A DNA stretch of 64,000 nt, taken from the NCBI GenBank assembly GCA_034189385.1, contig JAXHVD010000003.1, positions 142,104 to 206,103 on the forward strand, in the 5' to 3' direction. The notes beneath the pieces were generated by a model. That model ran no database searches. It was not told the DNA's origin and saw nothing but the letters and a program-made list of their open reading frames with translations. This document shows positions 15,225 to 51,276 of the stretch, piece by piece; within the stretch, counting starts at the first letter, position 1; every line of letters begins with the position of its first letter. This DNA is from Thermodesulfobacteriota bacterium. GTDB lineage: Bacteria > Desulfobacterota > Desulfobacteria > Desulfobacterales > C00003060. A program made the translations under genes and the position numbers.

Positions 15225-15254
15225 GAAAGAATAAAACGCCTGCAATGAGAGGGC

Positions 15255-16429: not shown

Positions 16430-16470
16430 ATTACTGTATTTCGGCACGAAAAATACAGTCTTCACCCCAT
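16430..16470 (+). promoter_or_regulatory. site A of the 41-bp bipartite motif
   Basis: ATTACT-gtatttcggcacgaa-AAATACAG-tcttc-ACCCCAT. See findings for the other four copies. Confidence 0.55.
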
Positions 16471-16626
16471 TTACATCTGACCCCACAAACCATAATTTTC
16501 AACCTGTACGGTGGTTCACAAAGATAGAAGGGAGGGATGGAAGTACCTGAGTTGGGCATCAACAAGAGGCTTTGATGAAGGTGAATGGACGAGACAAGCA
16601 GTCAACAAACAGAGGAGAAGGGAAAA

Positions 16627-16938
16627 ATGGACGTAAAAGACTATTGTGGTTCTATGAGCACGGAACTGATGGCTTGGAAGGCGAAAATGTACGACATCAC
16701 GCGCAGACTGGACAAATTGGGAAGCGCGGATAAAGAAAAGGTGCTTTCGCAAGTGGAGGACATGCATATCCTTGTGACGGAAATGGGTGACAGAATCGAT
16801 AAGCTCAACCGGGAATGCCCTTCCGAATGGAGCCCGGACAAGAATGCCATCGATAATGCCCATACAGACATGCGTGCCAAATACGAGAGCACCATGGAGT
16901 TCATCGGAAAGGCTGCTCCCGTATCAGTCCCCGGCTAA
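16627..16938 (+). CDS. hypothetical helical protein (about 103 aa)
   Basis: ATG 16627 follows GAGGAGAAGGG. The sequence is MDVKDYCGSMSTELMAWKAKMYDITRRLDKLG...; I recognise no family. The track ORF starts at 16585. Confidence 0.6.
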   Translation: MDVKDYCGSMSTELMAWKAKMYDITRRLDKLGSADKEKVLSQVEDMHILVTEMGDRIDKLNRECPSEWSPDKNAIDNAHTDMRAKYESTMEFIGKAAPVSVPG

Positions 16939-31572: not shown

Positions 31573-32970
31573 CTACGCACGAGGGCCGATGTCCCCCTCA
31601 GAAAGAGACCCAATCCGGCGCACGTACGTCTCAATGTCAAACTTGCGCCGAAGCCCTGCGGCGTTCATATACCTGACCTTGCCGAAGACGGGGCGCTCAG
31701 ACCAGGCCCGATCGTGTTTGCCCAAACACCACGCCACGCCGGCAAATCCGTTGGGGTCTCTTCCATCCAACTCGTACTTATTGTTCAAGTAGAGCGCCGT
31801 GCGAAAGGCTTCTTCCGGGGTTTTGCTCCACTCCAAGATCTTCTTTCCCCAGTACATCCGCATGTAGTTGTGCATCTTGCCCGTTATCACCATTTCCTGT
31901 TGCGCTGCGTTCCAGTATGGGTCGTGGGTGCGGGCCTGCTCCCACGCCTCCACATCGTATATGTACTCACGGTTGTCCTTTTCATGGGCCCTCAGGGTTT
32001 CTCTGGCCCAGCCCGGCAGTGCCTGGTACGCATCATAGTGCGGGTTGTAGTAAACAAAGTTCATGCTCAATTCTCGCCGCACGATCAGCTCTTCAAGGTA
32101 CGCCTCTTTTGCTCCTTTTGGCTTGCCTCTTGCCCGGCGCACCTCGAGGCCAATCTCAACGGGAGAGATCTGCCCGAAATGGAGATACGGACTCATGTGT
32201 GAGCCATAGTCTGTACTGGGGTCGTTCCTGCGGTCCGCGTAGTATTTCAGCTTTTCCTTGATGAAGAGGTGGAGCAGCCCCATGGCCTCCTTTCTCCCGC
32301 CAGAGAAGGTCTCCACCGGAGAGACGCTTCGGTCCAGAGTGAGTCCACGGAGCGCCCCTTTCACGTCTTCCACATCCAGGCCCTCGTATGAAAGACCCAG
32401 GGAGTCTTTCTCCACAGGGGTTGATTTTAGGGAAACCAGATAGCGTTTCAGGTGCTTCTGAATCCGCGGCCGCAAGATGGCTGCAGTATAGGCCTCCTTT
32501 TCAGAAGCCACGGCAACAGGAACAACCACGTCGCTTTCCACTTGGACCACCAGACACGGGGCGTGGTCAGCCACGTGACGGCGCCACCCCTTCTGAATCC
32601 TAAGATACCCCCTGTCGGTCACCACCATGGAGGCGTCTTTGGAAAACTGGACGGCTGCAAGCTCGGGCGAGTCACGAAGGGCTACAAACTGAATGCCCCG
32701 CTGGTAGAGTCCTTCATGAACCTCCCGGAGCCCCTGAAGCATAAAGGCGTAGTGTCTCTCATTGGCCTCAGGAAAACGGTCGGTGATGCCGAAAAGAACG
32801 ACGACCGGCCGCCTCAGTCCATTGGCTTGTCCGATGGCATACTCTAAGGCGTGGTTGAAGACCACTCTTTGAGAGGCCTGCATCCAGTAGAGGACATAGC
32901 GCCCCTTTTGGATGGGGCGATCATTCAATGGTTCCACCCGTTCCCGTTGAATCATGAGGCCCCCTGTCAC
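31573..32970 (-). CDS. phr: class II CPD photolyase
   Basis: Contains YVLYWMQASQRVVFNHALEYA, SPYLHFGQISP and MHNYMRMYWGKKILEW. Confidence 0.9.
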   Translation of the reverse strand: MTGGLMIQRERVEPLNDRPIQKGRYVLYWMQASQRVVFNHALEYAIGQANGLRRPVVVLFGITDRFPEANERHYAFMLQGLREVHEGLYQRGIQFVALRDSPELAAVQFSKDASMVVTDRGYLRIQKGWRRHVADHAPCLVVQVESDVVVPVAVASEKEAYTAAILRPRIQKHLKRYLVSLKSTPVEKDSLGLSYEGLDVEDVKGALRGLTLDRSVSPVETFSGGRKEAMGLLHLFIKEKLKYYADRRNDPSTDYGSHMSPYLHFGQISPVEIGLEVRRARGKPKGAKEAYLEELIVRRELSMNFVYYNPHYDAYQALPGWARETLRAHEKDNREYIYDVEAWEQARTHDPYWNAAQQEMVITGKMHNYMRMYWGKKILEWSKTPEEAFRTALYLNNKYELDGRDPNGFAGVAWCLGKHDRAWSERPVFGKVRYMNAAGLRRKFDIETYVRRIGSLSEGDIGPRA

Positions 32971-32973
32971 GGA

Positions 32974-34527
32974 TCAGGACATCTTCTCTTGCAGACCTTT
33001 CGCCTGAGCGCGAATGGCCTGCTGCCTTTCTCTTGACAACCTGTCAAGGTTCCTAAACTGCAACCCCATTCGTGGGTTCTTTCTCAGGAACGTCTGGTGA
33101 CGCATCAGGAAATCCCAATACAACGTGGTAAAGGGACAGGCAGCCTTAGACACCGCCTGCGATGGATCATAGGGACAAGCCGTGCAGTAATTGCTCATGC
33201 GCTGAATGTATTTTCCCGTGGCCACGTAAGGCTTTGAAGCCATGATACCGCCGTCTGCAAACTGTGACATCCCCAGGGTGTTGGGCAGCTCCACCCATTC
33301 CACGGCATCCACGTAGACCGCTAGATACCACTTGTGCACCTCTTGCGGCTTCACGCCCAAAAGGAGGGCAAAGAGGCCTGTCACCATCAATCTCTGGATG
33401 TGATGGGCGTAACCGTACGAGAGGGTCTGCCCGATGGTCTCTCGAAGACAAAGCATGTCCGTCTCCCCAGTCCAATAAAACCGAGGCAACGGCGCCTGTG
33501 CATCTAACCGGTTCAGGTCTCCGTATTCCGGCATGAAGTGCCAGTATATCCCCCGAACGTATTCTCGCCATCCCAGAATCTGTCTGACGAAACCCTCTGC
33601 GGCATTCAACGGGGCGCGGCCCTCCTCATGGGCCCTTTCCGCTGCAGCCAAGACTTTTCTGGGATCGATCAGTTTCAGATTCAAGGAGGAAGACAGCCGC
33701 GAATGGAAGAGATAGGGACTGCCGGCCCACATGGCGTCCTGGTACAGCCCAAATGCGGGCAGGCGGTTTTCCACAAAGTCTGAAAGGGCTTGAGACGCCT
33801 GGCGTGGTGTCACGGGCCAGTCAAAATGTGCCAGACTCCCCGGGTGCCCCGAAAACCGTTTCTCTACAAGCTTCTTGACTTCTCGGGTGGTCTTGTCCGG
33901 CCGGAAGGATCTAGGTGGAGAGACTCTTCCCGGGCCTTCTTTACCGAATGGCTGCCGATTCTCTGCGTCGTAGTTCCATTTGCCTCCCAGGGGCCCATCG
34001 CCGTCCATGAGGATGCCGGTTTTACGACGCATCTTTCGGTAAAAAAACTCCATTCTCAATTGCTTGCGCTCACCTGCATACTCAGAAAACGTCTGGCCTG
34101 TAGAAAAGAAGTGTCGATCCGACCGCATCTCTATGGGTAACCCTTTAGTCTTTGCCGCTTCCACCAGGGCCTGTTTCACCCTCCATTCCCCAGGCTCTGC
34201 CAGAATCAGCCTCTGGGGGTTGAGGCTTGCGATGGCGGCTTTCAGTGCCAACGAAAAGGTTTCGCGGTTCTCTGGACCGTCTAGCTGGCTGTAGTGGACC
34301 GTCATACCCTTTCGCCGAAGGGCATCCCGAAAGTGCCTCATGGCGCTCAAAAATAGGGTGATGCGGGCCTTGTGTGACCATACATAGATGGATTCCTCTG
34401 GGATCTCCGCCATCCACACGGCATCATCAGCGGCATTGAATCCGTCAAAGGCCGAGGAGTCCGAATTGAGTTGATCGCCCAGCACCAAGATGAGATGGCG
34501 GGGCTTTTTGCGAGGATCGTAGGACAT
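32974..34527 (-). CDS. cryptochrome/photolyase-family protein of the Fe-S (FeS-BCP, (6-4)-photolyase/CryB-like) type
   Basis: Contains LILVLGDQL, HKARITLFLSAMRHF, HIQRLMVTGLFALL and C-terminal Cys ligands (YCTACPYD...ACPFTTLYWDF). Confidence 0.8.
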   Translation of the reverse strand: MSYDPRKKPRHLILVLGDQLNSDSSAFDGFNAADDAVWMAEIPEESIYVWSHKARITLFLSAMRHFRDALRRKGMTVHYSQLDGPENRETFSLALKAAIASLNPQRLILAEPGEWRVKQALVEAAKTKGLPIEMRSDRHFFSTGQTFSEYAGERKQLRMEFFYRKMRRKTGILMDGDGPLGGKWNYDAENRQPFGKEGPGRVSPPRSFRPDKTTREVKKLVEKRFSGHPGSLAHFDWPVTPRQASQALSDFVENRLPAFGLYQDAMWAGSPYLFHSRLSSSLNLKLIDPRKVLAAAERAHEEGRAPLNAAEGFVRQILGWREYVRGIYWHFMPEYGDLNRLDAQAPLPRFYWTGETDMLCLRETIGQTLSYGYAHHIQRLMVTGLFALLLGVKPQEVHKWYLAVYVDAVEWVELPNTLGMSQFADGGIMASKPYVATGKYIQRMSNYCTACPYDPSQAVSKAACPFTTLYWDFLMRHQTFLRKNPRMGLQFRNLDRLSRERQQAIRAQAKGLQEKMS

Positions 34528-38598: not shown

Positions 38599-39096
38599 GT
38601 GAAGAGCATGACAGAACAAACAACAACTGCAACAGGAACCCTTGAAGAAGGGATGTCTGCATTCACAAAGGGGAAGTTCAACGAGAGTATATGTGACCTT
38701 TCAAAAGCCATCAGGCTCGACCCCAACAAAGAAGTCGCCTACCTCACCCGTGGGGTTGCATATATGAAGACGGACAGACCAAACCTGGCCATAGATGATT
38801 TTGACAAGGCCATCGAACTCAACCCGGGCCATCGGCGGGCGTATCACCTTAGAGGCCATGCGCACTACGTCATGGGAAACAGGAAAAGAGCTTTACAAGA
38901 TTTTGGCAAGGCGATCGAACTAGATCCCGAATATGGAGCCGCCTATTTGAGCAGGGCAAATCTCCACACCGAGCTGGGACACGGCGAAAAGGCCGGGCAA
39001 GATATGGAGATGGCCCTTCTCCTTACAGAAAAGAATATGGGAACCTTTGCAAACGAAAACAACGTCTTGAGATGCAAGCACCGGGCTGGAGGCTGA
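38599..39096 (+). CDS. TPR-repeat protein
   Basis: Repeats of the form A.YLTRGVAYMK...AI.DFDKAIELNP are present three or more times. Confidence 0.8.
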   Translation: MKSMTEQTTTATGTLEEGMSAFTKGKFNESICDLSKAIRLDPNKEVAYLTRGVAYMKTDRPNLAIDDFDKAIELNPGHRRAYHLRGHAHYVMGNRKRALQDFGKAIELDPEYGAAYLSRANLHTELGHGEKAGQDMEMALLLTEKNMGTFANENNVLRCKHRAGG

Positions 39097-39147
39097 AGGC
39101 ATCGTGGGAAAAACTGAGAGGCGAGAAATAAAATAGGAAAGAGACGA

Positions 39148-39612
39148 TTATCTCTGATCTGCCACTTCCATGATGTGTCTGAAGACATCGGCCAGGGTGA
39201 CGACGCCCACGAGTCTGTCATCCTTCATCACAGGCATCTGCTTGATTTTTCTAAGGGTCAAGATCGAACCAGCCTTTAAAATGCTGGTCTCCTGATCCAG
39301 TGTCATGGCAGGAGCGCCCATCACTTCTCTGACCTTTATCTTCTTTACCTTTTCGATTCTATTCTGAATATAACCAAGATCCGACAAGTGCTTCTCGTCC
39401 TTATATATGTCAGGATACCTGGGGAGGACAGACCTGAATATATCCGCTCTGGTAATCACCCCGACGACACGATGATCATGGACCACAGGGGCCCCATTGA
39501 TGTCGTGCTCCTGTAATAAGCGTCCACATTCTTCTATGGTTAAATCTTCCTCCACCGTAATCACAGGAGACTTCATAATCTCGTCTATTTTCATTGTCCC
39601 TTTCCTTCCCAA
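39148..39612 (-). CDS. CBS-pair domain protein
   Basis: Two CBS motifs are present: IMKSPVITVEEDLTI..., and VVGVITRADIF / LVGVVTLADVF. Confidence 0.85.
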   Translation of the reverse strand: MGRKGTMKIDEIMKSPVITVEEDLTIEECGRLLQEHDINGAPVVHDHRVVGVITRADIFRSVLPRYPDIYKDEKHLSDLGYIQNRIEKVKKIKVREVMGAPAMTLDQETSILKAGSILTLRKIKQMPVMKDDRLVGVVTLADVFRHIMEVADQR

Positions 39613-39715
39613 TCGCTGTCAGTGACTGGAGACGCTCCAAAAACCCAGAACCTATTCTCACAAAGACACGGTTGCTTTTCAAAGGCACGGTATGTGCACT
39701 TGGTGGCAGCCTGGG

Positions 39716-40948
39716 TCAACGAGAGGCCGCATCGCTTTTAAAGGCATCGACGTTCTCTATGTGCGCTTCTTCCTCGGTGATGGTCGTAAGGGGCGGATCA
39801 TCAGCGATATCCATCCCCGGCACGTAATCAAAGACTCCCGTAAGCTCCCTGTTTACCATCTGGTAGAGCCTGGTCAGGGGAATTTCCATAGGACACACAT
39901 CTTGACACTGCCCGCAATTGACACAGGAGTCTGCCACATGAGCCAATCTGATTAAAGGAAACATGATATGGGGCGGCGTTTCTCCAGCTTGCACAAGATC
40001 TCTTGATGGCTCCAGGTAACAGTCCTGACAGTAACAGATGGGACACACATCCCTGCAACCAAAGCACTTGATGCACCTGTCAAGATATCTTAGCCAGTAT
40101 TGCAATCGATCCTCGTAGGGAAGCCATCTTAGGACATCCAGGTCCTTTTCTTGCCAGGTCTGGGCCAATTCAACGGCCTCTTGGTCTTCTTGTTCCCTTT
40201 CCTTTAAGGCTTCCTGATCAGGCGGCTCCGCGTGAAGGGCACCCGCTTCCAAGGCCTCTTCCATCAGGTTGGAGCCTTTCTCCGAGCATACTTCTATGAA
40301 CGTAGCCTGTTGGCCCTTTGTGCCCCACTTGCCACAAGCCAGATCAGCCATCCGAGGAATATTGAAGGCGCACCGCCTACAATTTTCTCTTCTGCCATAT
40401 CCCTGTTCCTCTAGCTCCTTTAGATCCCTTTCTTTTTTGCTCCCATCTGCGAGCGTGATGACAAGTTTTTTTGAATCAAGCTCCTCGCCCACCACGTCCT
40501 CAGGGTTGACCTGATATGCCTCTGAAATCATTCTTCTGGCAACGCCTGGCATCAATGTGCCCGTGCAGTTCAGGCCTATTAAGAGGAGATTCTCGGTATT
40601 GATTTGTCTCCTTTTCGCTAGCTCTATGATGGCACGGCAGTCACAGGGCTTGCAGGTCACTGCCACCTTCAGGTCTTGGGCACCGTTTAGATACTCCCTT
40701 ATCTCTTTGGCTACATTCACTGGAGCAACGTGCAGGGTCCCAGCACAGGTGATGACTTCGTCGGGATTCGATATGAGAGACACCACTCCATCATATCTGT
40801 TTCCATCTCTTTTTCGGACCGCCAATACGGCATCTACAATCTTACGCTCAAGGGCAAACTTCAGCAACGCAGTGACTGCACCACCTGATGCGCCCTTAGA
40901 CCGAATTTGCTCGTCAGTGGACCAAGCAAGATACATGTCGCCTTTCAT
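39716..40948 (-). CDS. FrhB/FdhB-family (F420-hydrogenase/dehydrogenase beta-like) Fe-S flavoprotein, putative formate dehydrogenase beta subunit
   Basis: Contains SKGASGGAVTALL, GLNCTG and ferredoxin motifs CIKCFGCRDVCP and CVNCGQCQDVCP. Its start is adjacent to the fdhA stop. Confidence 0.75.
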   Translation of the reverse strand: MKGDMYLAWSTDEQIRSKGASGGAVTALLKFALERKIVDAVLAVRKRDGNRYDGVVSLISNPDEVITCAGTLHVAPVNVAKEIREYLNGAQDLKVAVTCKPCDCRAIIELAKRRQINTENLLLIGLNCTGTLMPGVARRMISEAYQVNPEDVVGEELDSKKLVITLADGSKKERDLKELEEQGYGRRENCRRCAFNIPRMADLACGKWGTKGQQATFIEVCSEKGSNLMEEALEAGALHAEPPDQEALKEREQEDQEAVELAQTWQEKDLDVLRWLPYEDRLQYWLRYLDRCIKCFGCRDVCPICYCQDCYLEPSRDLVQAGETPPHIMFPLIRLAHVADSCVNCGQCQDVCPMEIPLTRLYQMVNRELTGVFDYVPGMDIADDPPLTTITEEEAHIENVDAFKSDAASR

Positions 40949-42978
40949 TATGATACCTTCTCTACCTTCACTGCACAGAACTTGAACTCCGGCATCTTAG
41001 ACGGAGGGCCTGCACAGGGTCCTGTCAAGACGTTTGGTGCGCATTCTGAAAAATGCCAAGGCACAAATATCAGGCCTTTCCTAATGTCTTCTGTTACCCT
41101 AGCCACTGTCTCTATCGTGCCTCTTCTGGATGTTAATCTCACCTGGTCTCCGTCTTGTATGGAGAGGGCCTGGGCATCTTCAGGGTTTATCTCTGCAAAT
41201 CCATGGGGCAGCTCATTGTTCAGGCGCCCAGTTCGTCTGGTCATGGTGCCTGAATGAAAATGGAATATCACCCTGCCATTTGTGAATATGTAAGGATACT
41301 CCTCATCTGGCACCTCCAAAGGGGGAGTGTATTCTGCAACCTGGAATTGTGCAAGACCGTCTGCGGTGGGGAATTTGCCAACAAACATGACCTCCGTCCC
41401 AGGATGATCCTCTGTGGGGCATGGCCATTGAATGCCGCTGGGATTTTTGAGCCTTTCATAGGTAATCCCCTTGTATTGAGGCACACATTTCCTGATTTCC
41501 TCAAAAATATCAGCCGGGCTCTGAAAACCAAAGGCCGCCTCAAAACCCATCCTCTTTCCCAATTCACAGAAAATGTCCCAATCCGGTCTTGCATCACCCG
41601 GCGGCGCCACGGCCTTGTAGAGCCTCTGAACCCTTCTATCTACCCCGGTCATGGTCCCGTCCTTTTCCACGGACGTCGCTGCAGGGAGCACAATGTCAGC
41701 CATTTTTGCCGTTTCTGTCATAAAGATATCCTGGACGACCAAGAAATCTTTGCTTTTCAGGGCCTGCCTGACGCTTGTCGTATCTGGCGCAGCCGACATG
41801 GGATTCGCCCCCACGATGTATAAGACTCTGCATTTTCCCACCATGTCCATGTAAGTCATTCCAGGGGTTGAAGGCAGATCCTTGACTCCCCAGAGGTCTT
41901 CAAAACGCCTGGCTGTTTCCTCATTCACCTTTTGAAATCCAGGGTAGAAAACTGGCAAGGGCCCCATGTCCCCAAAGCCCTCACCATTGGCATGACCCCT
42001 CAGGGGGTTTACGCCAGTACCCGGCCTTCCATAGTTTCCCGTCATGAGTGCCAAGTCCACCAAAGCCCTGATGTTCTCTATGCCTGCACCATGCTGGGCA
42101 ATGCCTGCATTGTATAAGATACAGGCTTTTTCGGCCTTCCCGTACATGAGTGCCGCCTCTTTGATCACATCAAGGGGGATCTCCGTGATGCGCTCTATTT
42201 CACGCAGATCCAGACTCTGCAAATAGCTCTTCAGGTCCTCAAATCCTTTTGTCCTCTCTTCTATGAACCCTTTATCCTCTAGCCCCTCATCCAAGATGAG
42301 CTTCATCATGCCGTTGACCAGGGCATTGTCCGTCGCAGGGTAGATCTGCAAGTACAGGTCTGCAAGGTTTCGAGCCGTGATCGTCCTTCGGGGATCTGCA
42401 ACGATCACCTTGGCCCCTTTACGCTTTGCCCGTATGATCCTGCGGGCAATGATGGGATAGGTTTCCTGGAGGTTGGGACCGGCCACAAAGATGCAATCCG
42501 CCTGCTCAATACTGATAGTGGACGTTGGCATCACGCCTGAGCCCACTGTGGAAAGCAAGGCGGGCACTGAGGTAGAATGGCAGAACCTGGAGGCATTATC
42601 CATGTTGTTTGTCTTCTTAACGACCCTGACAAACTTCTGAATGACATAGAGATCTTCGTTTGTACACTTTGCAGAATTGATGAAGCCCACCTCATCGGAA
42701 GCCGTGCTGCCCAATTTGTCTGCGATCACCGAAAGGGCAGCATCCCAGGAGGTCTCCGCAAAGACACCGTCTCGTTTTACTAACGGCCTTACCAGCCTTT
42801 GATCACTCGTTGAACAGGCATGGGCGTTTCTTCCTTTCTGGCAGTTTTTGCCCTCACATACGGGATGCCCCTTCCACGGCTCCATGCCCACCAACTCGCC
42901 GTCTTTTACTACCAAGTAGATGCCACATCCGCAGCCGCAGTAAGGGCAAATAGTCGGTACGTGTTCAATGGATGTCAT
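40948..42978 (-). CDS. fdhA: formate dehydrogenase catalytic (molybdopterin) subunit, Cys-type
   Basis: The N-terminal 4Fe-4S motif is CPYCGCGCG. The active-site region is NASRFCHSTSV, with Cys where Sec-type FDH enzymes have U. The C-terminus has a MopB/molydop-binding domain. Confidence 0.85.
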   Translation of the reverse strand: MTSIEHVPTICPYCGCGCGIYLVVKDGELVGMEPWKGHPVCEGKNCQKGRNAHACSTSDQRLVRPLVKRDGVFAETSWDAALSVIADKLGSTASDEVGFINSAKCTNEDLYVIQKFVRVVKKTNNMDNASRFCHSTSVPALLSTVGSGVMPTSTISIEQADCIFVAGPNLQETYPIIARRIIRAKRKGAKVIVADPRRTITARNLADLYLQIYPATDNALVNGMMKLILDEGLEDKGFIEERTKGFEDLKSYLQSLDLREIERITEIPLDVIKEAALMYGKAEKACILYNAGIAQHGAGIENIRALVDLALMTGNYGRPGTGVNPLRGHANGEGFGDMGPLPVFYPGFQKVNEETARRFEDLWGVKDLPSTPGMTYMDMVGKCRVLYIVGANPMSAAPDTTSVRQALKSKDFLVVQDIFMTETAKMADIVLPAATSVEKDGTMTGVDRRVQRLYKAVAPPGDARPDWDIFCELGKRMGFEAAFGFQSPADIFEEIRKCVPQYKGITYERLKNPSGIQWPCPTEDHPGTEVMFVGKFPTADGLAQFQVAEYTPPLEVPDEEYPYIFTNGRVIFHFHSGTMTRRTGRLNNELPHGFAEINPEDAQALSIQDGDQVRLTSRRGTIETVARVTEDIRKGLIFVPWHFSECAPNVLTGPCAGPPSKMPEFKFCAVKVEKVS

Positions 42979-43411
42979 GAGCGCCTTCTCTCTCTATCCT
43001 TTGTGACAGAGGGTTTGGTCCAATGCCTCTTGCCTCTTCTACAAAGTCCCTGACCAATTGCGCAAATTGCGGACCCTCCGATGCGGATACCCAGGCCAGG
43101 CGCAATCTGGCCGGATCGATACCCACACATTCCAGCAATTTCTTCGTCATCAAGACCCGTCTTCTTACGTGCAGATTACCTTCCAGGTAATGACATTCAC
43201 CCGGATGTCATCCCCCCACAAGCACGGCATCTATGCCCTGAGTCAGTGCCTCCAAAATCATGACAGGATCAATTCTCCCAGTACACATGACCCGGATCAC
43301 CCGGATGTTGGGGGGATATTGGAACCTGGAAACGCCAGCCAGATCGGCTCCGGCGTAAGAACACCAGTTGCACAGAAAGGCTATTAATTTGGGTTCAAAT
43401 GAACTTGACAT
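42965..43411 (-). CDS. mvhD: MvhD/VhuD-like (methyl-viologen-reducing hydrogenase delta) protein with selenocysteine (TGA at 43208-43210)
   Basis: ORFs 43208..43444 and 42965..43153 are in one frame. The joined context is [25 protein letters not shown], compared with the conserved GCHxGDCHY motif. The start is ATG 43411 or 43444. Confidence 0.8.
43175..43191 (-). promoter_or_regulatory. SECIS-like hairpin after the mvhD UGA
   Basis: Minus strand: AUUACC-UGGAA-GGUAAU, a 6-bp stem with a GG-containing loop, starting 16 nt after the UGA. Confidence 0.45.
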
Positions 43412-43516
43412 TGTCAGAAACCCCCGTCTTTCTCCTAAGGCCATGTAGAATAGGCTGAAAGGTGGACCTTGAAGAAGGGAACGTTTTTTCTGCTGCTTTT
43501 GGATTTCAGCTTTTCT

Positions 43517-46500
43517 CTAAACAACAGCATGAATTTGTGCCCTGATTTGATGTTGACTAAAATGACACATATCAACGGCTTTTGACGGACAGCTCGCAGC
43601 ACAAAGGCCGCAACCCTTACAGGATGCAGTAATGTTTTCAGCCTTCATTTCACCATGAAGCTCCACTAGGTGGATGGCATCGAAGGGACACACCCTTTCA
43701 CAGATGCCGCATCCATTGCACATATCCGTATTCACCACAGATACAATGGGCTCGATCTCCACTGCATCTTTCATTAAGATATTTGCAGCCCGGGCAGCAG
43801 CGGCTTTGGCCTGGGCAATAGACTCCTCAATCGGTTTAGGATATTGACAAAGCCCTGCCAAGAACAGGCCTTGAGTGGCAAAATCAACGGGCCTGAGCTT
43901 CATATGGGCCTCCAAGAAGAAGCCTTCTTCGGTGGTGGACACTTTATAGAGTTTGGAAAGGGCCATGTTGTCATTTGGTAAAATGGCAGTGGCAAGGCAG
44001 ATCATGTCTGGAAGGATTTCAAGGGGTCTTTGCAACACGTGGTCCGTAATCCTCAGCTTGAGTCTGCCATTTTTCCTCTCAACCGTAGGTTCATTTCCCA
44101 GGTTGTAGCGAATGAACAGCACGCCTTTGGCTCTGGCCTCTGTGTACAACTCCTCCCTGTCCCCAAAGGTCCTGATATCCCGATAGAGGATATATATACG
44201 CATATGGGGATTGAGCCGTTTCAGGGCCAACGCACTGACCATAGAATGGGTGCAGCAAACCTTACTACAATAGGGTCTTTCAGGTATTCTGGATCCTACG
44301 CACTGGATGAAGACAACGCTCTTGGCGTTGCTGATCCGTTTACTACGGCCCACGATCTCTTGATCAAGTTCCAGGGGCAGCAATACATCTGGGTCTCTTC
44401 CATATAGATATTCCCTGGGCTTATAGGGTTTGCCGCCAGTCGTCATGATGACTGCCCCGTGCTGCAATTCTGTCTCTTTGCCCTCCTCGTCAAGGAGCGT
44501 GGAGGAAAACCCTCCCACAAAACCAGAGGCGTCCTTGATGGTTGTCCGAAGCCAAAGAGTGATCAATGGATGCTCACGGACCTTTTTGATGAGGTCTTCT
44601 ACATAAGCCCTTATATCTTCGCCTTTATAGGTGGTGTCAAGATGGAGGGCCTGACCGCCCAGTCTATTCTCTTTTTCGACGAGATCGGTCTTGAACCCTT
44701 GCTCAGCCAGACTTAAAGCGCTCACCATGCCTGCCACGCCCCCACCGATCACCAACCCCTGGTGGTTGACCGGTACAGATATGTCCGCCAGCGGCCTGAT
44801 GAGCCTTGCCTTGGCCACAGCCATTCTGACGAGGTCTTTGGCCTTTTTGGTAGCTGCATCCGGCTGTTCCATGTGGACCCAGGAGCATTGATCACGGATA
44901 TTTGCCATCTCAAAGGTGTATTTATTCAAACCGGCCTCGCGGAGTGTTTCTCTAAACAGGGGCTCATGGGTCCTTGGCGTGCAGGAGGCAACGACCACCC
45001 GGTTAAGGTCATATTCTTTGATGTGTTCCCTTATCCTGTTTTGGGTATCCTGGGAGCAGGTGAAAAGATTTCTATCTGCTACGACGACATTGGGAAGGGT
45101 CCGCGCATATTCAGTGACTTCAGGGACGTTGACCACGCCCCCAATATTGATCCCTCAATGGCAAACAAAGACGCCTATGCGCGGTTCCTGACCAAGGATC
45201 TCTTTTTCAACAGGATACTCCTTTTTCTTCACCAGCGTATTTCTTGCCGGCGCCAGGAGGCCCATGGCAGAATCGGCTGCAGCACTCGCCTCCATGACCG
45301 TACCTGGGATGTCCTTTGGTCCTTGAAATGCTCCGCACACATAGACCCCTGGCCTTGAAGTCTCTACAGGAGAAAGGCACTGCGTCTTTGCAAAAAGGTG
45401 GTTATCCAGCTCTATATGGAGCCGCTCAGCCAAAGCTTCAGCCTTGGCAGGAGGCATGAGGCCAATGGAAAGGACCACCATGTCAAATACTTCCTCTTTC
45501 CTCTCGCCTGTTTCACTGGCATAGACCAGCTTGAGGTCCCCACTGTCTGCCACGGGCTCTATGGAGTGTATCCTTGACCTGATAAACCGGACACCAAATT
45601 CATCCTTGGCCCGGTTATAGTACTTCTCAAAATCTTTGCCGTAGGTCCGCATATCCATGAAGAAGATGGCTGTATCTAATGGCAACGAGCTGTGTTCCTT
45701 GGAAATGACGGCCTCTTTGATGGCGTACATGCAGCACACAGCAGAGCAGTACCCTTGGTCACATTGGTTTATATTCCTTGAACCCACACATTGAAGCCAA
45801 GCGATCTTTTTCGGTTCTTTTTCGTCAGACGGGCGCACAAGGTGGGCCTTGTAAGGACCGGAGGCACTCAGAATACGCTCGAATTCCATGCTCGTGACCA
45901 CGTTGGGAAAGCGGCCATGCTGATAGAGATCATCGCCTGAAGGATCGTATGGCTCAAAACCTGGGGCCAGGATGATGGACCCAACATTTAGTTCGACTGT
46001 TTCATCTTCTTGAGAGTGATCGATGGCATCAGCAGCGCAAAACGCAGTACATATCTTGCATCCACCGGTCTTGAAGTGCATGCAGTATTCACGGTCGATT
46101 GCCGGCGCCTTTGGCACGGCCTGAGGATAGGGGATGTACACCGGTTTTCGTCCGATAAGCCCCATGTCATACTCAGAGGGAATAGGTTCAACGGTATGTT
46201 TGGTAATATCTTTTAGCTTGATGTGGCCAGTGGGACAAACCGACGCGCAAGCTCCGCAGGCCATACACAGTTCGGTCTGAATATGGAAAGGGGTATCCAC
46301 TCTCATATCCACACCCCTGCCGGTCAGGGTGATGGCACTGTTTCCCATCCTCTCGCAAACACGGACACAAAGACCGCAGAGGATGCAATCATCGTCCCTC
46401 TTCTTAAACCGCGGTTCCTTGATCCCATATCGCGCTGCCAGCTCCTTGACCGTAGGCACGTTCGGACAACGAGCAAGGAGGAGTTCCACGATCAGTTTTC

Positions 46501-46753
46501 GCCCCTCATGGACTGCATCGGTCTCCGTGCGAACCTCCATCCCTTCCTTGATGGGGTAGTTACATGCCGTGACGAAATTGGTCTTACGGCCATCAAAAAC
46601 CTCCACCGTACAAAGACGACACATCCCCGCAGGCCCAAGGGCCTTATGGTAGCATAAGGTGGGAATCTCGACCCCGTATCGTTCGGCCACCTGAAGGATG
46701 TATTCTCCTTCTTCTCCCTGGACGTCTTTTCCATTCAGCTTAAAATGTACCAT
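43517..46753 (-). CDS. hdrA: about 1078-aa fusion of a NuoG-like 2Fe-2S/4Fe-4S module, a partial HdrA module and a complete HdrA-like module, with selenocysteine (TGA 45155-45157)
   Basis: ORFs 45155..46753 and 43517..45136 share a frame. The junction reads [42 protein letters not shown], compared with the HdrA CHCGxNI motif. The N-terminus has LCYHKALGPAGMCRLCTVEV. GGGVAG FAD sites and terminal ferredoxin motifs are present. Confidence 0.8.
45123..45141 (-). promoter_or_regulatory. SECIS-like hairpin after the hdrA UGA
   Basis: Minus strand: GGGGCGU-GGUCA-ACGUCCC, a 7-bp stem with one G-U pair and a GGUC-containing apical loop like the E. coli fdhF SECIS loop. It begins 13 nt after the UGA. 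Confidence 0.6.
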
Positions 46754-46873
46754 GGATTACTCCCTGTTAACGCGCTGTTGCCCAAATCGCTTTTCGCTTT
46801 GGCTAAAACCTTTTTTGACAAATCTAAAGCTCACTCCAGGCGATGTCAAAACTCGCCCTTTTGGCTCTGCAAC

Positions 46874-48775
46874 TCATTCTATACAGATGGCGTTGAACTT
46901 ACAGGCATTGTAACAGATGCCGCACTTGATGCATTTCTCCTGGTCTATGTGATGGCATTTCTTCTTTTCACCGGTGATGGCCTCCTGCGGACATTTGAGT
47001 GCGCAGAGATGACAGCCGTTACACAGAGCTTCATCAACTTCGTAATGAAAAAGGGCCTTGCAGACACCTGCGGGGCACTTCTGATCCTTGATGTGGGCCT
47101 CGTACTCATCTCGGAAATAGAGGAGCGTCGTTAACACCGGATTGGGGGCTGTTTTGCCTAGTCCGCACAGGGAAAACCTCTTGATCATGGCAGCCAGCTC
47201 CTGAAGGAGTCTGATGTCGCCCTCCCGGCCCTTTCCCTCGCAGATATCACCCAGGATTTCTGCCATCTGGGTAATCCCTTCACGGCAGGGCGTGCATTGA
47301 CCACATGATTCGTTCTTGAGAAAATCCAGGAAGTATTTTGCAATGTTGACCATGCAGGTGTCCTGGTCCATGACGATCATACCGCCCGAGCCCATGATCG
47401 AGCCAAGCTCGCTGAGCTTCTGGTAGTCTACCGGGGTATCGAGGTACTGTTCAGGGATGCAGCCACCGGAAGGCCCCCCTGTCTGAACAGCCTTGAATGC
47501 CTTTTTCTTCGGAATGCCGCCGCCTATATCAAAGACGATCTCTCGCAAGGAAATGCCCATGGGGACTTCTACCAAGCCGGTATTTTTCACCTTCCCCACG
47601 AGGCTAAAGACCTTCGTCCCTTTGCTGTGCTCCGTGCCGATGTTGCCGTACCACTGGGCACCCTTTAAGAGGATCACCGGGACATTGGCATAGGTCTCAA
47701 CGTTATTCAGGTTGGTTGGTTTTTCCCTGAACCCTTTTTCCACAGTATGCACATATTTGGCCCTGGGTCTTCCCACTTGACCTTCCAACGAAGCCATCAA
47801 GGCCGTTGATTCACCACAAATAAAGGCCCCTGCCCCAGTGGAGATCTTGATGCGGAAACCAAAATCAGTCCCCCCTATATGGTCACCAAGCAACCCATAG
47901 GCCTCTGCCTGCTTGATGGCTGTGACCAGGCGCTTAACCGCCAACGGGTATTCATGCCGCACATAAATGAAGCCTTGATGGGAGCCAATGGCCCGTGCTG
48001 CAATCAACATCCCTTCCAGGACACTGTGGGGGTCGCCTTCCAGAATACTCCTATCCATGTAGGCGCCCGGGTCGCCTTCATCGGCATTGCAGATGATATA
48101 TCTCTCACCCTTCAGTCTTGCACAACTTTCCCATTTTATTCCTGTTGGAAAGCCAGCACCACCGCGACCCCTTAACCCCGATTCCTTGATGGTCTTAATA
48201 ATCTCAGGGGGGTCGCCTTCCAACAGGCATCGCATAAAGGCTAGGTACCCGCCTTTGGCGATGTACTCTTCGATGCTATCGGGGTCAATATAGCCACAAT
48301 TGCGCAAGGCGATTTTTGTCTGTTTACTGTAAAAGGGGACATCCTCCAAGAAGGGGATCCCCTCGATGGGTGCTGTCTCGGCAAGGGGGTTTTCCATGTC
48401 TTCTTCTAATAGGGAACGAGGATCGCGCATTTGGGCTAGGATCCACTTTTTATTGAAATCGCCTTGGATGTAGCCTTCAATGGCGTCTAGGATCTTCTCC
48501 TTGGAAAGGTGCCTGTAAACCACTCTCGGCCGCCCCTTTCCGAAGATTTCGACCAAGGGTTCTTCCTGACAGAAACCCAGACAACCGGTCTTGTGGATCT
48601 CAATGCCAGGGTCCTCTGGAAATGCCTCTAAGGCCTTTTCAAAGGAGGCCTTTGCACCGGCTGCGATGCCACAGGAGGCCATTCCTATGTTCACCGCGAT
48701 GCCTTCTGGGTGGTATAGCCTGTTGCTGTAGTCCTGCCTGATCTCTTCCAGGTCTTTAATAGACCCCACTTGCAT
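46874..48775 (-). CDS. NuoF/HoxF/HydB-like NAD(H)-binding FMN Fe-S flavoprotein with N-terminal thioredoxin-like domain and C-terminal 2x[4Fe-4S]
   Basis: Contains GLRGRGGAGFPTGIKW, ESCGQCTPCREG and the C-terminal motifs CNGCHLCALKCP / CIKCGICYNAC. ATG 48775 is preferred over the longer track ORF. Confidence 0.85.
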   Translation of the reverse strand: MQVGSIKDLEEIRQDYSNRLYHPEGIAVNIGMASCGIAAGAKASFEKALEAFPEDPGIEIHKTGCLGFCQEEPLVEIFGKGRPRVVYRHLSKEKILDAIEGYIQGDFNKKWILAQMRDPRSLLEEDMENPLAETAPIEGIPFLEDVPFYSKQTKIALRNCGYIDPDSIEEYIAKGGYLAFMRCLLEGDPPEIIKTIKESGLRGRGGAGFPTGIKWESCARLKGERYIICNADEGDPGAYMDRSILEGDPHSVLEGMLIAARAIGSHQGFIYVRHEYPLAVKRLVTAIKQAEAYGLLGDHIGGTDFGFRIKISTGAGAFICGESTALMASLEGQVGRPRAKYVHTVEKGFREKPTNLNNVETYANVPVILLKGAQWYGNIGTEHSKGTKVFSLVGKVKNTGLVEVPMGISLREIVFDIGGGIPKKKAFKAVQTGGPSGGCIPEQYLDTPVDYQKLSELGSIMGSGGMIVMDQDTCMVNIAKYFLDFLKNESCGQCTPCREGITQMAEILGDICEGKGREGDIRLLQELAAMIKRFSLCGLGKTAPNPVLTTLLYFRDEYEAHIKDQKCPAGVCKALFHYEVDEALCNGCHLCALKCPQEAITGEKKKCHHIDQEKCIKCGICYNACKFNAICIE

Positions 48776-48788
48776 CGCCTGAAACCCC

Positions 48789-49286
48789 TTAGTGATATTC
48801 ATCCAACACCTTTTGTATGTTTTCCTGGCTGACCCGGCTATAGACGTCTTCATTGATCTTGACGACTGGTCCAAGACTACAGCATCCAATGCAGCGCACA
48901 GGCTCGAGAGTGAAGCGCATATCTTCCGTTGTTTCTCTGGCGCCCACATGGAGAATCTCCTGGATCCTTTCCCACAGCCTTGCCCCGCCCCTTACATGGC
49001 AGGCCGTCCCCAGACAGACAGAGATGATGTTTCTGCCTTTGGGGACCAGACTGAAGCTGCTGTAGAACGTACCGACAGCATAGATGAGACTGATCGGCAC
49101 CCCTATCTTCTCAGAAAGATAGGTCAAAGATGCCTGGGGCAAGTGGTTATACTGACGCTGAATGGCCTGGAGAATCATGATAAGATTCTCTTTGTCGTCG
49201 TGGAATTCCTCATCTATGATCCGATCAAGTTCCATGTAATCGATCTCAACGGTTTGCTCCATCGTAGATAGCGCTATGTCAGTCAT
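48789..49286 (-). CDS. NuoE/HoxE-like 2Fe-2S thioredoxin-fold subunit
   Basis: Contains VCLGTACHVRGG...CIGCCSLGPVV. Confidence 0.9.
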   Translation of the reverse strand: MTDIALSTMEQTVEIDYMELDRIIDEEFHDDKENLIMILQAIQRQYNHLPQASLTYLSEKIGVPISLIYAVGTFYSSFSLVPKGRNIISVCLGTACHVRGGARLWERIQEILHVGARETTEDMRFTLEPVRCIGCCSLGPVVKINEDVYSRVSQENIQKVLDEYH

Positions 49287-49517
49287 ATAGGTGTCTCCCT
49301 CACAGGAAAAAGGTCTATTCCCTAGGTGTTGAGAATAATTAGAAATGGCGTACTCGAGGGTGGACTGCAGGTTATTGAAAACTCACCCCTGGCTCCATGG
49401 ATAACGAGCAACAGGAAGGCCTATTTGTTTTCCGTGCACTTCTCTTTCCAAGACTCCGATACGCCATACGCGACGTTTGCCCGTTGGCGAGTCCTTGTGG
49501 ACTCGCAACACCAAGAC

Positions 49518-49919
49518 TTATCCATCCATAACCGCTTGATTGGTCACCGGGCAGTTCTCCACACAAAGGCCGCACCCAATACAACGGCTCAAGTCGATAC
49601 TCCGGGCGCGCTTCTTCACCTTTACTCTGAAATTGCCAGCAGAGCCATCCACCGATTCGATGTCGGCATAGGTGATGATTTCGATATTCAGGTGGCGACC
49701 GCATTCCACCAACTTTGGCGACATGATACACATGGAACAGTCATTGGTGGGGTATGTCTTATCTAGTTGGGACATCTTGCCGCCAATGGCTGGCGTATCT
49801 TCAAGTAGATAGACATAAAAGCCAGCATCGGCGAGATCAAGGGCAGCTTGGATGCCACCGATGCCACCACCTACCACCAACACGGCACCGACTTTGTCTT
49901 CTTGTTGAGACGTTGCCAT
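49518..49919 (-). CDS. stand-alone HdrA N-terminal FAD/ferredoxin fragment (133 aa)
   Basis: Contains VLVVGGGIGGIQAALDLADAG, LDKTYPTNDCSMCIMSPK and CIGCGLCVENCP. It ends with TAA, not TGA, so no Sec read-through is expected. Confidence 0.7.
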   Translation of the reverse strand: MATSQQEDKVGAVLVVGGGIGGIQAALDLADAGFYVYLLEDTPAIGGKMSQLDKTYPTNDCSMCIMSPKLVECGRHLNIEIITYADIESVDGSAGNFRVKVKKRARSIDLSRCIGCGLCVENCPVTNQAVMDG

Positions 49920-50232
49920 CTACCCTCTCTTTGGGCCCTTGTTTCCTTGAACCATGGACATGTTGGCACACCATAGGGACAGGGTGCCTTGCCGGGCCCG
50001 ACGCCCTCGTTGTTTTTGGTATATGCTCATAACACCCCGTTAACCACTTTGCGCTCATCTTGTCAAGGGGTTTTTGTGACACGTGGCCCCACTTCAAGGG
50101 GGTTGCAGGGCCCTGTCCAGTGCAGGAATCGTTGAAACCAACAATAGAAGAAACCCCTTTTGTGATGGCTTGGCCCGACGCTTTCACGGGGCTTGAAGCG
50201 TCGTCACTTGCCAGGCGATGGGACGCAGCCTT

Positions 50233-51276
50233 TCACATGGGCTTGACGTGGGATAGTCTCTCGCTCATGTTCTGTTCATAGAACTGCGTGGGCTGAAGCT
50301 CTTCATACTCGTTCCTTGAGGCGAGGTATTTCCGTATATCCAGGCAGAGGTGACATTTGGAAACGTAACCTTTGCTTTTCTCTCCATAACCCCTTTCTAA
50401 GGCAAAAGAAAACAGCCCTCTCATGTCTTCATGGACCAAATAGTTCAAGACAGGGCGGTTTTCCAGATCGAGTCCCTCTCTGAGGAGGCGATCCAACTCA
50501 AACCAACTCCCTAAGGAGATCCCGCCGCAGTAGCCGGGCATGAGATTGCCGTAATTGTCAAAATGGTTGTGCCAGTTGCGCAGCATCGTTGGCTGGCAGG
50601 GCACGCGAAAGAACCCTTTGGCCCGGTAGCTGGGGTAAAGGTCCTTTAATTGATAGGCAGCGCGGCCCATTAGAAAAAGCTCCACCCTGTGGGACACCGA
50701 CTCCCCGCCGGTGAGGTTTTGATAGTCCTCAATGGAAAGCCTGCCCCTAATGCCCAGCTTTTTAAAAAGACGATAATACTCCAGCTGATAGACGATCACA
50801 TCGGCCCCAAAGACCTCCAGGCTGATTTGAATGCACCGGTCTGTTCTTTCAAAGGGGACATACTCGGCATAGTAAGGATTTACCGAGATCAAGATCCCCC
50901 TGAGCCCCTTTTCCTTGAGGGCCTGGAGCCGTTCCCGCGTCAGGTCGTCGCTCTTGCACCAGAAGCAGTTTGTTTCCACAAACGTGGACGGGATCTTCAA
51001 TGCTGCTGCAATCTCAACGGCCTTCAGCAACAGCTCAACATTTAAGAAAGGCTCTCCACCTGTGAAATGGAGCCCGTGGTTCAAGCTCATATGTCGCCGA
51101 CCCTGTGGGCTGGGTTTGATCACCTTGGCCAGCTGGGGAAGAGATTGTTCCAGCTGCTCCACCGTTATCCAATCGGGGGTCCATTTCGGCGAGCAGGCGT
51201 ACATGCAGTGGCGGCAGGAAGCAGGGCACTTGTAGGAAAGGATCAGGCCGCCGGAGATGGGAGGAGGTATTTTCAT
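50233..51276 (-). CDS. radical SAM protein of unknown function
   Basis: Contains LSYKCPASCRHCMY (CxxxCxxC), FTGGEPF, and a C-terminal CHLC. Confidence 0.8.
   Translation of the reverse strand: MKIPPPISGGLILSYKCPASCRHCMYACSPKWTPDWITVEQLEQSLPQLAKVIKPSPQGRRHMSLNHGLHFTGGEPFLNVELLLKAVEIAAALKIPSTFVETNCFWCKSDDLTRERLQALKEKGLRGILISVNPYYAEYVPFERTDRCIQISLEVFGADVIVYQLEYYRLFKKLGIRGRLSIEDYQNLTGGESVSHRVELFLMGRAAYQLKDLYPSYRAKGFFRVPCQPTMLRNWHNHFDNYGNLMPGYCGGISLGSWFELDRLLREGLDLENRPVLNYLVHEDMRGLFSFALERGYGEKSKGYVSKCHLCLDIRKYLASRNEYEELQPTQFYEQNMSERLSHVKPM

Follow-up and report, generated by a model that had tools for sequence, protein, structure and literature searches.

The 64,000-nucleotide stretch of contig JAXHVD010000003.1 analysed here (the window), from a Thermodesulfobacteriota bacterium, carries at positions 39716-49919 seven co-directional genes on the minus strand, which in the 5′ to 3′ direction encode a small protein termed ORF1 (open reading frame 1), NuoE, NuoF, a large fusion protein, MvhD, FdhA and FdhB (Table 1). 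Judged from their sequences, the products combine two known kinds of system, a Bfu-family formate dehydrogenase and a BamE-like HdrA, and belong to a large and overlooked modular family. An earlier reading of this DNA from its letters alone (hereafter the sequence-only reading) had described seven co-directional, closely spaced genes; their order and strand are confirmed, but the count holds only if in-frame TGA codons are read through.

The intergenic gaps measure, in order, 231, 13, 120 and 105 nt. They are followed by a 14-nt overlap of mvhD with fdhA and a 1-nt overlap (ATGA) of fdhA with fdhB, and mvhD, fdhA and fdhB are translationally coupled. The start of NuoF is the ATG that lies 13 nt past the nuoE stop, which gives a length in agreement with that of its homologues (631-633 aa). 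Pfam E-values for the operon products range from 1e-15 to 1e-75; the large protein is matched by Fer2_4 at its N-terminus and by Pyr_redox_2.

The sequence-only reading had also reported that HdrBC, hydrogenase and membrane subunits are lacking, and indeed neither the operon nor the whole 64-kb window contains HdrBC, hydrogenase, Bam, Wood-Ljungdahl or membrane-complex genes. A protein of the AOR family (BamB/BamC-type) or with a CCG domain (HdrB/HdrC, BamD) was likewise found neither in the operon nor in the window. Membership of the Bam complex, that is, class II benzoyl-CoA reductase (BCRII), is ruled out by the missing AOR-type BamB/BamC and BamD, and membership of a canonical HdrABC-MvhD complex by the missing CCG-domain subunits HdrB and HdrC.

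Table 1. Coordinates (window numbering) and properties of the operon genes, their subdivisions, the recoded codons and the downstream gene.
Feature	Coordinates	Strand	Properties
ORF1	49518..49919	-	133 aa, TAA stop; Pfam FAD_oxidored and Fer4
NuoE	48789..49286	-	165 aa; PF01257 at 1.7e-45
NuoF	46874..48775	-	633 aa; PF01512 at 6e-45, PF10589 at 2.5e-33
Large fusion gene	43517..46753	-	1078 codons, in-frame TGA at codon 533
Large gene residues 1-185, BfuA/NuoG-like Fe-S domain	46199..46753	-	Pfam Fer2_4 and Fer4_7
Large gene residues 186-520, rest of HdrA module 1	45194..46198	-	alignment to HdrA 5odc_A
Large gene residues 521-1078, HdrA module 2	43520..45193	-	alignment to HdrA 5odc_A
HdrA selenocysteine 533 (TGA)	45155..45157	-	motif VFVCH-U-GINIGG, in the N-terminal-type cluster domain of HdrA module 2
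SECIS-like hairpin of the HdrA gene	45123..45141	-	GGGGCGU-N5-ACGUCCC, 16 nt past UGA
MvhD-type [2Fe-2S] adaptor	42965..43411	-	148 codons, in-frame TGA at codon 68; PF02662 at 5e-53
MvhD selenocysteine 68 (TGA)	43208..43210	-	motif GG-U-HPGECHY
SECIS-like hairpin of mvhD	43175..43191	-	AUUACCU-GGA-AGGUAAU, 19 nt past UGA
FdhA	40948..42978	-	676 aa; PF00384 at 7e-75, also PF04879 and PF01568
FdhB, FrhB-family flavin/Fe-S subunit	39716..40948	-	410 aa; PF04422 and PF04432
CBS-pair protein	39148..39612	-	154 aa, PF00571; 104 nt downstream of fdhB

The HdrA-like ORFs of 532 and 539 aa share one frame and are parted solely by the TGA at codon 533; they are one selenoprotein gene of 1078 aa. The two HdrA-like modules that had been read here beside MvhD are therefore both present, although not as two HdrA genes but within one selenoprotein. 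The motif around codon 533 aligns with VYVCHCGVNIGG of the solved HdrA, which places selenocysteine (Sec) opposite Cys. MvhD is also a selenoprotein, with Sec at position 68. Comparison of 87 related loci (labelled L001 and onwards, L001 being that of Desulfobacteraceae Eth-SRB2; those of formate dehydrogenase (Fdh) type all come from metagenome-assembled genomes (MAGs) or metagenomes) shows Sec/Cys alternation at both sites, with TGA in the closest orthologues and TGC or TGT in more distant ones.

Both TGA codons are followed by hairpins resembling a selenocysteine insertion sequence (SECIS). Support for them was drawn from synonymous sites, at which Sec-type and Cys-type genes were compared, covariation not being demonstrable because the stems are invariant. 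None of the 22 distinct TGA-type genes departs from the mvhD stem (CAUUACC/GGUAAU) at synonymous sites (6.8 of 7 pairs), whereas the same codons vary freely in 23 Cys-type genes (mean of 4.3 of 7 pairs). For the HdrA gene, all seven distinct TGA-type genes form 7 of 7 pairs, against a mean of 4.6 of 7 in 98 Cys-type genes, evidence that is weaker because the seven are closely related. A tRNA scan of the window found no tRNA, hence no tRNA-Sec, and sel genes are absent from the window as well. In the public gene calls of three loci (L001, L088 and L089) the 1078-aa selenoprotein is broken into pieces of 532 and 533/539 aa and MvhD into fragments of ~67 and 57-75 aa, and the ORF1 homologue of L006 is annotated on the wrong strand in the public record. 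Automatic annotation thus mis-calls both selenoproteins and misses ORF1, so that such systems are systematically under-recognised.

The HdrA, NADH and formate modules

The alignment of the large protein to HdrA (5odc_A) falls into three pieces, with HdrA residues 2-235 corresponding to residues 522-754 of the large protein, 241-504 to 158-441 and 505-647 to 933-1075. ORF1, the first small gene, which the sequence-only reading had not singled out, is a conserved stand-alone HdrA piece: its residues 13-126 align to residues 146-259 of the same HdrA (E=9.5e-45), and the HdrA sequence resumes in the large protein from about HdrA residue 260. ORF1 contains a GxGxxG motif, the CxxC pair C61/C64, equivalent to Cys194/Cys197 of HdrA, and, from the inserted ferredoxin domain, the first CxxCxxCxxxCP motif. 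By this alignment it is identified as a stand-alone N-terminal piece of the first HdrA flavin domain, which is of the thioredoxin reductase (TrxR)-like type.

HdrA module 1 consists of ORF1 together with residues 186-520 of the large protein. The latter provide the second half of the inserted ferredoxin domain (C224, C232, C235 and C239), the flavin-domain cluster (C322, C336, C340 and C341) and the hallmark of a bifurcating flavin, Lys346 (CCMYAIK), which is the Lys that touches N5 of the bifurcating FAD. Module 2 comprises a cluster domain of the N-terminal type, a further FAD domain (GGGVAG at ~666) and a C-terminal 2x[4Fe-4S] ferredoxin domain (C1012-1055); it has neither Cys197 nor an inserted ferredoxin domain, and its motif CCTHSMV is without the hallmark Lys. 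The presence of this Lys in module 1 and its absence from module 2 extend to 119 of 119 full-length homologues. HdrA domains are thus spread across two modules and two polypeptides, and the NCBIfam HdrA models score under their cutoffs. The same complementary loss of domains is known from tandem and fused HdrAs (Chadwick et al.), and BamE is a fused HdrA dimer that holds its bifurcating FAD at Lys280 and its non-bifurcating FAD at Gln768 (preprint 10.64898/2026.04.10.717634). From the domain alignments, the large protein is assigned as a BfuA-like Fe-S domain fused to a BamE-like fused HdrA dimer.

Relatives of the window protein differ in what lies between the two parts of module 1. In contiguous, BamE-like relatives (L020, L021, L022, L033, L036, L042 and L054), the ORF1-like part and residues ~152-1078 form a single ORF in one frame. 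HdrL-type relatives (L016, L030, L040, L053 and others) have a ~500-aa insert between the ORF1-like part and residue 232, which falls within the inserted ferredoxin domain; it is the NfnB/GltD-like insert known from Desulfobacterium autotrophicum HdrL and from ANME-1 HdrA. The nuoE and nuoF genes and the BfuA domain of the window take, at gene level, the same position as this NfnB-like insert. The window HdrA is itself not HdrL-type because it lacks the GltD/NfnB insert, an identity ruled out by the absence from the window protein of any GltD/NfnB-type Pfam match and of a ~500-aa insertion.

Eight of nine split-type loci carry the ORF1 homologue as a separate ORF (~128-161 aa) whose stop codon varies, and among 1790 homologous proteins at E<=1e-20 the best 120 are all 120-171 aa long. 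Their hosts include Desulfobacterota, Chloroflexota and Poribacteria. Such a conserved stand-alone family with varied stop codons rules out that ORF1 is a pseudogene remnant. In a Zixibacteriota MAG (L019, 7317-8195), the ORF1 homologue is fused in frame to NuoE (292 aa). Both halves of the inserted ferredoxin domain are hence covalently joined to Bfu subunits in some lineage, which argues that the Bfu module docks there.

The NADH input module of the sequence-only reading, namely NuoE, NuoF and a NuoG-like [2Fe-2S] N-terminus, is borne out by Pfam and structure matches. NuoE has the Cys ligands C91, C96, C132 and C136 in a C-x4-C-x35-C-x3-C pattern. NuoF is built of an N-terminal thioredoxin (Trx)-like domain, an FMN/NAD(H) core and a C-terminal 2x[4Fe-4S] domain (Pfam Complex1_51K, NADH_4Fe-4S and two Fer4), and matches 7t2r_B (NiFe-Bfu) at 2e-214 over query residues 35-630 and 9bov_B over 28-633. 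Further full-length matches are 8oh5_B (Stn transhydrogenase), HydB (7q4v_B/8a6t) and 9n5u_B (NfnB-Bfu), whereas E-values are ~100 orders of magnitude poorer with non-bifurcating NuoF/FdsB, which are devoid of the terminal domains. The Bfu family is characterized by a BfuBC core with extra clusters, among which is the B2 [2Fe-2S] cluster with a His ligand missing from non-bifurcating homologues; in A. mobile BfuB, the B2 ligands are Cys438, Cys/Thr476, His525, Cys531 and Cys536 (Schut 2022). All five are kept in the window NuoF, as C474, C512, H561, C567 and C572. The BfuA domain of the large protein contains ligands for a [2Fe-2S] cluster (C34, C45, C48 and C64) and two [4Fe-4S] motifs (C123-133 and C163-173), and matches the NuoG-like chain 9mqx_A at 1.4e-41 as well as HydA N-termini. 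The operon thereby encodes the composition of the Bfu family, with a BfuB-type NuoF, a BfuC-type NuoE and a BfuA-type Fe-S entry domain, and NuoEF is predicted to be of the bifurcating HydBC/BfuBC type.

The catalytic subunit FdhA is of the Cys type (ASRFCHSTS) and is accompanied by an FrhB/FdhB-like subunit, both as the sequence-only reading had proposed. Its Cys lies opposite the selenocysteine of the solved F420-type FdhA 9t1s_L, and both the His next to it and the active-site Arg (NPLRG) are kept. FdhA matches 9t1s_L at 1e-210 and 7bkb_D at 1e-190 over its full length, passes the NCBIfam formate dehydrogenase alpha equivalog TIGR01591 (771 bits versus a cutoff of 666) and, as judged from its sequence, has no twin-arginine (Tat) leader. 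It is thus predicted to be the catalytic subunit of a cytoplasmic molybdo/tungstopterin formate dehydrogenase. FdhB has full-length matches to 7bkb_E (2e-117) and 9t1s_M (2e-107), and MvhD, FdhA and FdhB are the same trio that is docked on HdrA in solved methanogen Fdh-Hdr complexes (7bkb, 9t1s).

The window trio is 62-68% identical to that of an Asgard archaeon and its FdhA is 61-64% identical to ANME-1-type proteins. Because of these resemblances the Fdh module looks archaeal in origin. In Candidatus Freyrarchaeum guaymaensis (L002/L003, 9557-13267), an MvhD-FdhA-FdhB trio 62-68% identical to the bacterial one adjoins group-4 hydrogenase- or complex I-like genes, which suggests that the trio has moved between archaea and bacteria.

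Distribution and surroundings of the operon

Comparison across genomes shows that the gene order is kept in at least six other loci, in which the full operon recurs with both TGA codons (Desulfobacteraceae Eth-SRB2, L009, L010, L012, which is partial, L088 and L089); the sequence of L008 stops after the large gene. A fused HdrA gene lies directly upstream in every bacterial locus examined that encodes an FdhA of at least 78% identity. In Eth-SRB2, NuoE and NuoF (L001, 3842-6240) are just 48% and 63% identical to those of the window, against 73-89% for ORF1, the fusion protein, MvhD and FdhAB, which suggests that the NuoEF cassette has been replaced in this organism. A second NuoE-NuoF-NuoG-like set follows fdhB in the same locus (13345-16691).

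The core formed by ORF1, NuoE, NuoF, the fusion protein and MvhD is far commoner than the full Fdh operon, with at least 8000 proteins at E<=1e-30; the best 120 of 8000 are 59-63% identical. The genes that follow this core vary. In L007, the exact core of the window precedes MetV-MetF, a layout noted by Yi et al. 2021 as the 'X-type' arrangement of methylenetetrahydrofolate reductase (MTHFR). Flx-like Fe-S/FAD proteins and DsrC follow the core in L004, L006 and L019, and Desulfatirhabdium butyrativorans is among the hosts of this Flx-like variant, while an HdrD-like CCG protein is found in this position in L014 and a further HdrA-like protein in L015. Upstream in L019 lies another fused HdrA, this one contiguous, together with MvhD and Flx-like genes.

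The Fdh module is in turn found outside this context. In L016 (2421-10700), an HdrL-type protein, with the ~500-aa insert and without NuoEF, is followed by MvhD and FdhAB that are ~80% identical to those of the window; the same Fdh module is therefore also used with an alternative NAD(P)H module. L090 (9589-14621) encodes MvhD, FdhA, a 442-aa Pyr_redox_2/Pyr_redox_dim oxidoreductase and FdhB, with a thioredoxin gene nearby and no HdrA, a cluster that may represent a formate-linked disulfide reductase. Taken together, the operon and its sister loci suggest that the pairing of Bfu with HdrA, present in thousands of environmental sequences, is no one-off but a modular design with exchangeable catalytic partners.

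The CBS-pair gene downstream of the operon is found immediately after fdhB in L088 as well, but Eth-SRB2 and L089 do not have it there; it is an uncertain member of the operon, with a possible accessory or regulatory role. An 8-bp GC-rich hairpin, GCGAGUCC-ACAA-GGACUCGC, without a U-run, lies straight after the ORF1 stop (49480-49510, minus strand). The 231-nt spacer between ORF1 and nuoE was rejected as a structured element, its fold not being significant (z = -1.6) and the spacer not being conserved among orthologous loci. The remainder of the window consists of unrelated housekeeping genes, among them those for RtcB, a PBP, Asd, an ion channel, photolyases, a peptidase M1 and a radical-SAM protein. 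The RtcB RNA ligase (2077-3564, plus strand) and a Clp1-like P-loop protein of the polynucleotide kinase type (15255-16349, plus strand) are non-adjacent. Two photolyase-family genes (DNA_photolyase and DPRP) adjoin each other at 31573-34527 on the minus strand, in a lineage expected to be strictly anaerobic and sediment-dwelling.

Proposed reaction and alternative explanations

The seven genes are proposed to encode one soluble and reversible formate:NAD+/ferredoxin oxidoreductase, acting as a formate dehydrogenase or CO2 reductase, a proposal for which we consider the chances slightly better than even. A soluble enzyme linking formate, NAD(H) and ferredoxin is the best-supported reading because of the modules present, the synteny, the coupling of mvhD, fdhA and fdhB and the hallmarks of NuoF. 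The overall reaction would be 2 formate + NAD+ + 2 Fd(ox) <-> 2 CO2 + NADH + 2 Fd(red), where Fd is ferredoxin. Formate would be oxidized at the Mo/W-pterin of FdhA, and FdhB would hand the electrons on to the [2Fe-2S] cluster of MvhD, from which they would enter the BamE-like fused HdrA dimer at its C-terminal ferredoxin domain, an order adopted because it is seen in the solved methanogen and Bam complexes. The dimer would be built from ORF1 and the 1078-aa selenoprotein, ORF1 giving the flavin module that retains the hallmark Lys its first Rossmann element, its CxxC pair and one half of the inserted ferredoxin domain. BCRII is a precedent for Bfu and HdrA modules that operate in series.

At gene or protein level, the halves of this inserted domain are tied to Bfu subunits, through BfuA in the window protein and through the NuoE-ORF1 fusion in the Zixibacteria relative. 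From the inserted domain, electrons would enter the Fe-S chain of BfuA and reach the NuoF/NuoE core, where FMN and Fe-S clusters would split them between NAD+ and ferredoxin; this exit to BfuA and NuoEF is suggested because of the gene and protein fusions. The likeliest site of bifurcation would be the HydBC/Bfu-type FMN/Fe-S core, with the HdrA flavin serving as a second site or as a mere conduit. The preferred assignment is that the HdrA flavin acts as a one-/two-electron gate and that the Bfu core bifurcates. From the gene content and the solved relatives we infer the single complex, the order of electron transfer, NAD(H) and ferredoxin as substrates and the stoichiometry.

Several points weigh against this proposal. 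Although module 1 retains what marks a bifurcating flavin, neither the operon nor the window encodes a high-potential partner (HdrBC, HdrD/BamD or ETF), so that a simple three-substrate reaction leaves the HdrA flavin site without a role. The FdhB family binds F420 in archaea. Whereas it feeds the entry side in BCRII, the Bfu module seems here to be placed at the low-potential exit of canonical HdrA, an arrangement whose energetic logic seems puzzling. A promoter and terminator scan of 38900-50400 returned sites no more numerous than in shuffled sequences and has no bearing on operon structure.

The hallmarks of module 1, which keeps Lys346, the CxxC pair and the flavin-domain cluster, are in line with a two-stage, BCRII-like enzyme. 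Formate would then reduce the HdrA flavin via MvhD, the low-potential electron going to the Bfu core (ferredoxin and/or NAD+) and the high-potential one, via the flavin-domain [4Fe-4S] cluster, to a fourth, unlinked acceptor such as an HdrD/BamD-like protein, ETF or DsrC. Partners of this kind are encoded in sister loci (the HdrD-like CCG protein of L014; Flx-like proteins and DsrC in L004, L006 and L019), and BCRII uses an ETF that is encoded outside the bam operon. However, neither the operon nor the 64-kb window yields a candidate partner, none lies beside the operon in the six other Fdh-type loci, and formate, at -430 mV, gives little drive unless the potential of the acceptor is much higher; a two-stage enzyme is, on balance, unlikely. 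That the genes specify two enzymes side by side, with FdhAB using a soluble cofactor (F420 or other) and NuoEF-HdrA-MvhD forming a separate oxidoreductase, appears quite improbable. FdhB is indeed a full-length homologue of the F420-reducing FdhB, the MvhD-FdhAB trio occurs without an adjoining HdrA in the Asgard archaeon and in L090, and the NuoEF-HdrA core is found with other partners. Nevertheless, mvhD overlaps fdhA, MvhD is the HdrA adaptor in all solved complexes, and the fused HdrA is directly upstream in all the examined bacterial loci with a similar FdhA (at least 78% identity, as above). To our knowledge, moreover, F420 is not expected in most Desulfobacterota.

Two further alternatives concern the substrates at either end of the chain. 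NuoEF homologues also occur in non-bifurcating NAD-dependent formate dehydrogenases (6tg9, 6vw7 and 7e5z, among the weaker matches), and the complex might accordingly be a non-bifurcating NADH-dependent formate dehydrogenase or CO2 reductase, in which Hdr and MvhD would be a mere wire and ferredoxin no substrate. We regard this as very improbable, given that the Trx-like N-terminus, C-terminal 2x[4Fe-4S] domain and B2 His of NuoF are lacking in non-bifurcating homologues (Schut 2022), and that its best matches are all bifurcating and ~100 orders of magnitude ahead in E-value. At the other end, the FdhA-like subunit might act on a substrate other than formate, since the substrate of the ANME-1-type proteins to which it is 61-64% identical is deemed uncertain by Chadwick et al. 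This is most improbable of all in view of the score of FdhA, which clears the cutoff of a curated formate dehydrogenase alpha equivalog, of its full-length alignment (E=1e-210) to a solved F420-type formate dehydrogenase and of the conservation of the Cys/Sec-His pair and the active-site Arg.

Beyond the formate:NAD+/ferredoxin oxidoreductase proposed for the window, it is conceivable, though we hold it only tentatively, that the window operon represents a widespread family of hybrid enzymes. Through gene insertion and fusion, a HydBC/Bfu-type NADH/ferredoxin module would be plugged into the inserted ferredoxin domain of a fused HdrA pair split over two polypeptides, giving two bifurcation sites in series with a wiring other than that of BCRII. 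The result would be a common platform for FdhAB, MetVF, Flx-like-DsrC and HdrD-like partners in Desulfobacterota, Chloroflexota and others, and a main route for balancing formate, methyl-tetrahydrofolate (THF), NADH and ferredoxin in complete-oxidising sulfate reducers and their relatives. If the proposed function is true, it would account for the interconversion of formate/CO2, NADH and ferredoxin in some marine Desulfobacterota with neither a hydrogenase nor a membrane complex taking part. The hosts concerned include partners of alkane-oxidising archaea, such as Eth-SRB2, and the MetVF variant bears on the energetic coupling of methylene-/methyl-THF redox chemistry in the Wood-Ljungdahl pathway.

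Comparison with known systems

No identical characterised complex was found. In the literature searched, no description of the exact architecture, the split ORF1 or the shared insertion site was encountered, coverage of HdrA reviews being incomplete, so that an earlier mention is possible. NuoEFG-MvhD-HdrA clusters have been listed earlier for Desulfotignum phosphitoxidans and HdrA/HdrL-MvhD-FdhBA loci for D. autotrophicum, and the classification of Schut 2022 includes Bam-Bfu but no type that joins Fdh, Hdr and Bfu. According to an April 2026 preprint (10.64898/2026.04.10.717634), no oxidoreductase complex other than BCRII had been reported to hold two distinct bifurcation modules.

BCRII of Geobacter metallireducens, Bam[(BC)2DEFGHI]2, the 'Bam-Bfu' of Schut 2022 and the subject of a cryo-electron microscopy preprint (10.64898/2026.04.10.717634), is the closest characterised analogue, analogous but not identical. 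Both systems have a Bfu-type NADH/ferredoxin core (BamGH, with BamI as BfuA), a fused HdrA dimer with one bifurcating (Lys) and one non-bifurcating flavin (BamE) and an MvhD-type selenoprotein adaptor (BamF). However, the tungsten-containing catalytic module BamBC of BCRII is replaced by FdhAB in the window, and the HdrBC-like BamD has no counterpart in the window operon. BamF is also more than 100 aa longer than the 148-aa MvhD, the separate BamI contrasts with a BfuA domain that is fused to HdrA, and HdrA module 1 of the window is split, its first ~130 residues being ORF1. In BCRII, BamI feeds the C-terminal ferredoxin domain via BamF, whereas the Bfu genes of the window lie at the inserted ferredoxin domain; the wiring therefore probably differs.

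The methanogen Fdh-Hdr complexes, represented by Fdh-Hdr-Fmd of Methanospirillum hungatei (7bkb) and those of Methanococcus (9t1s, 8rvu), share with the window full-length FdhA, FdhB and MvhD homologues and HdrA domains that are 50-60% identical over long stretches. Formate is there the donor to the HdrA flavin via MvhD, as is proposed for the window. Their HdrA is a homodimer, in place of the fused, asymmetric pseudo-dimer of the window, which for its part lacks HdrBC and the heterodisulfide, adds NADH/ferredoxin subunits of the HydBC type and comes from a bacterial host.

The reaction proposed here for formate, NAD(P)+ and ferredoxin is catalysed by HylABC-FdhF2 of Gottschalkia acidurici, a Bfu-type bifurcating formate dehydrogenase akin to HytA-E/FdhA of Clostridium autoethanogenum, which has the same HydBC/BfuBC-type core. 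In that enzyme, however, Fdh is joined directly to a HydA-like BfuA with clusters A1-A5, and HdrA, MvhD and an FrhB-type FdhB are absent; its FdhA belongs to another subfamily, the W/Se-containing FdhF.

HdrL of D. autotrophicum and the HdrA-MvhD-FdhBA loci of Desulfobacterales resemble the window in having large Sec-containing HdrA-derived proteins followed by mvhD and sometimes by fdhB/fdhA, and in HdrL an NAD(P)H module occupies the same site, within the inserted ferredoxin domain. This module is nonetheless a ~500-aa GltD/NfnB-like insert in one polypeptide, as opposed to a separate NuoE and NuoF, a fused BfuA and a split-off ORF1 in the window.

Finally, fused HdrA with complementary domain loss is shared with the MetFV-HdrABC-MvhD system of Moorella thermoacetica and with the X-type NuoEFG-MetFV clusters of Desulfobacterales and Chloroflexi (Yi et al. 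2021). HdrBC is present and NuoEF absent in M. thermoacetica, and in all of these systems the catalytic partner is a methylene-THF reductase, the place taken in the window by the formate dehydrogenase.

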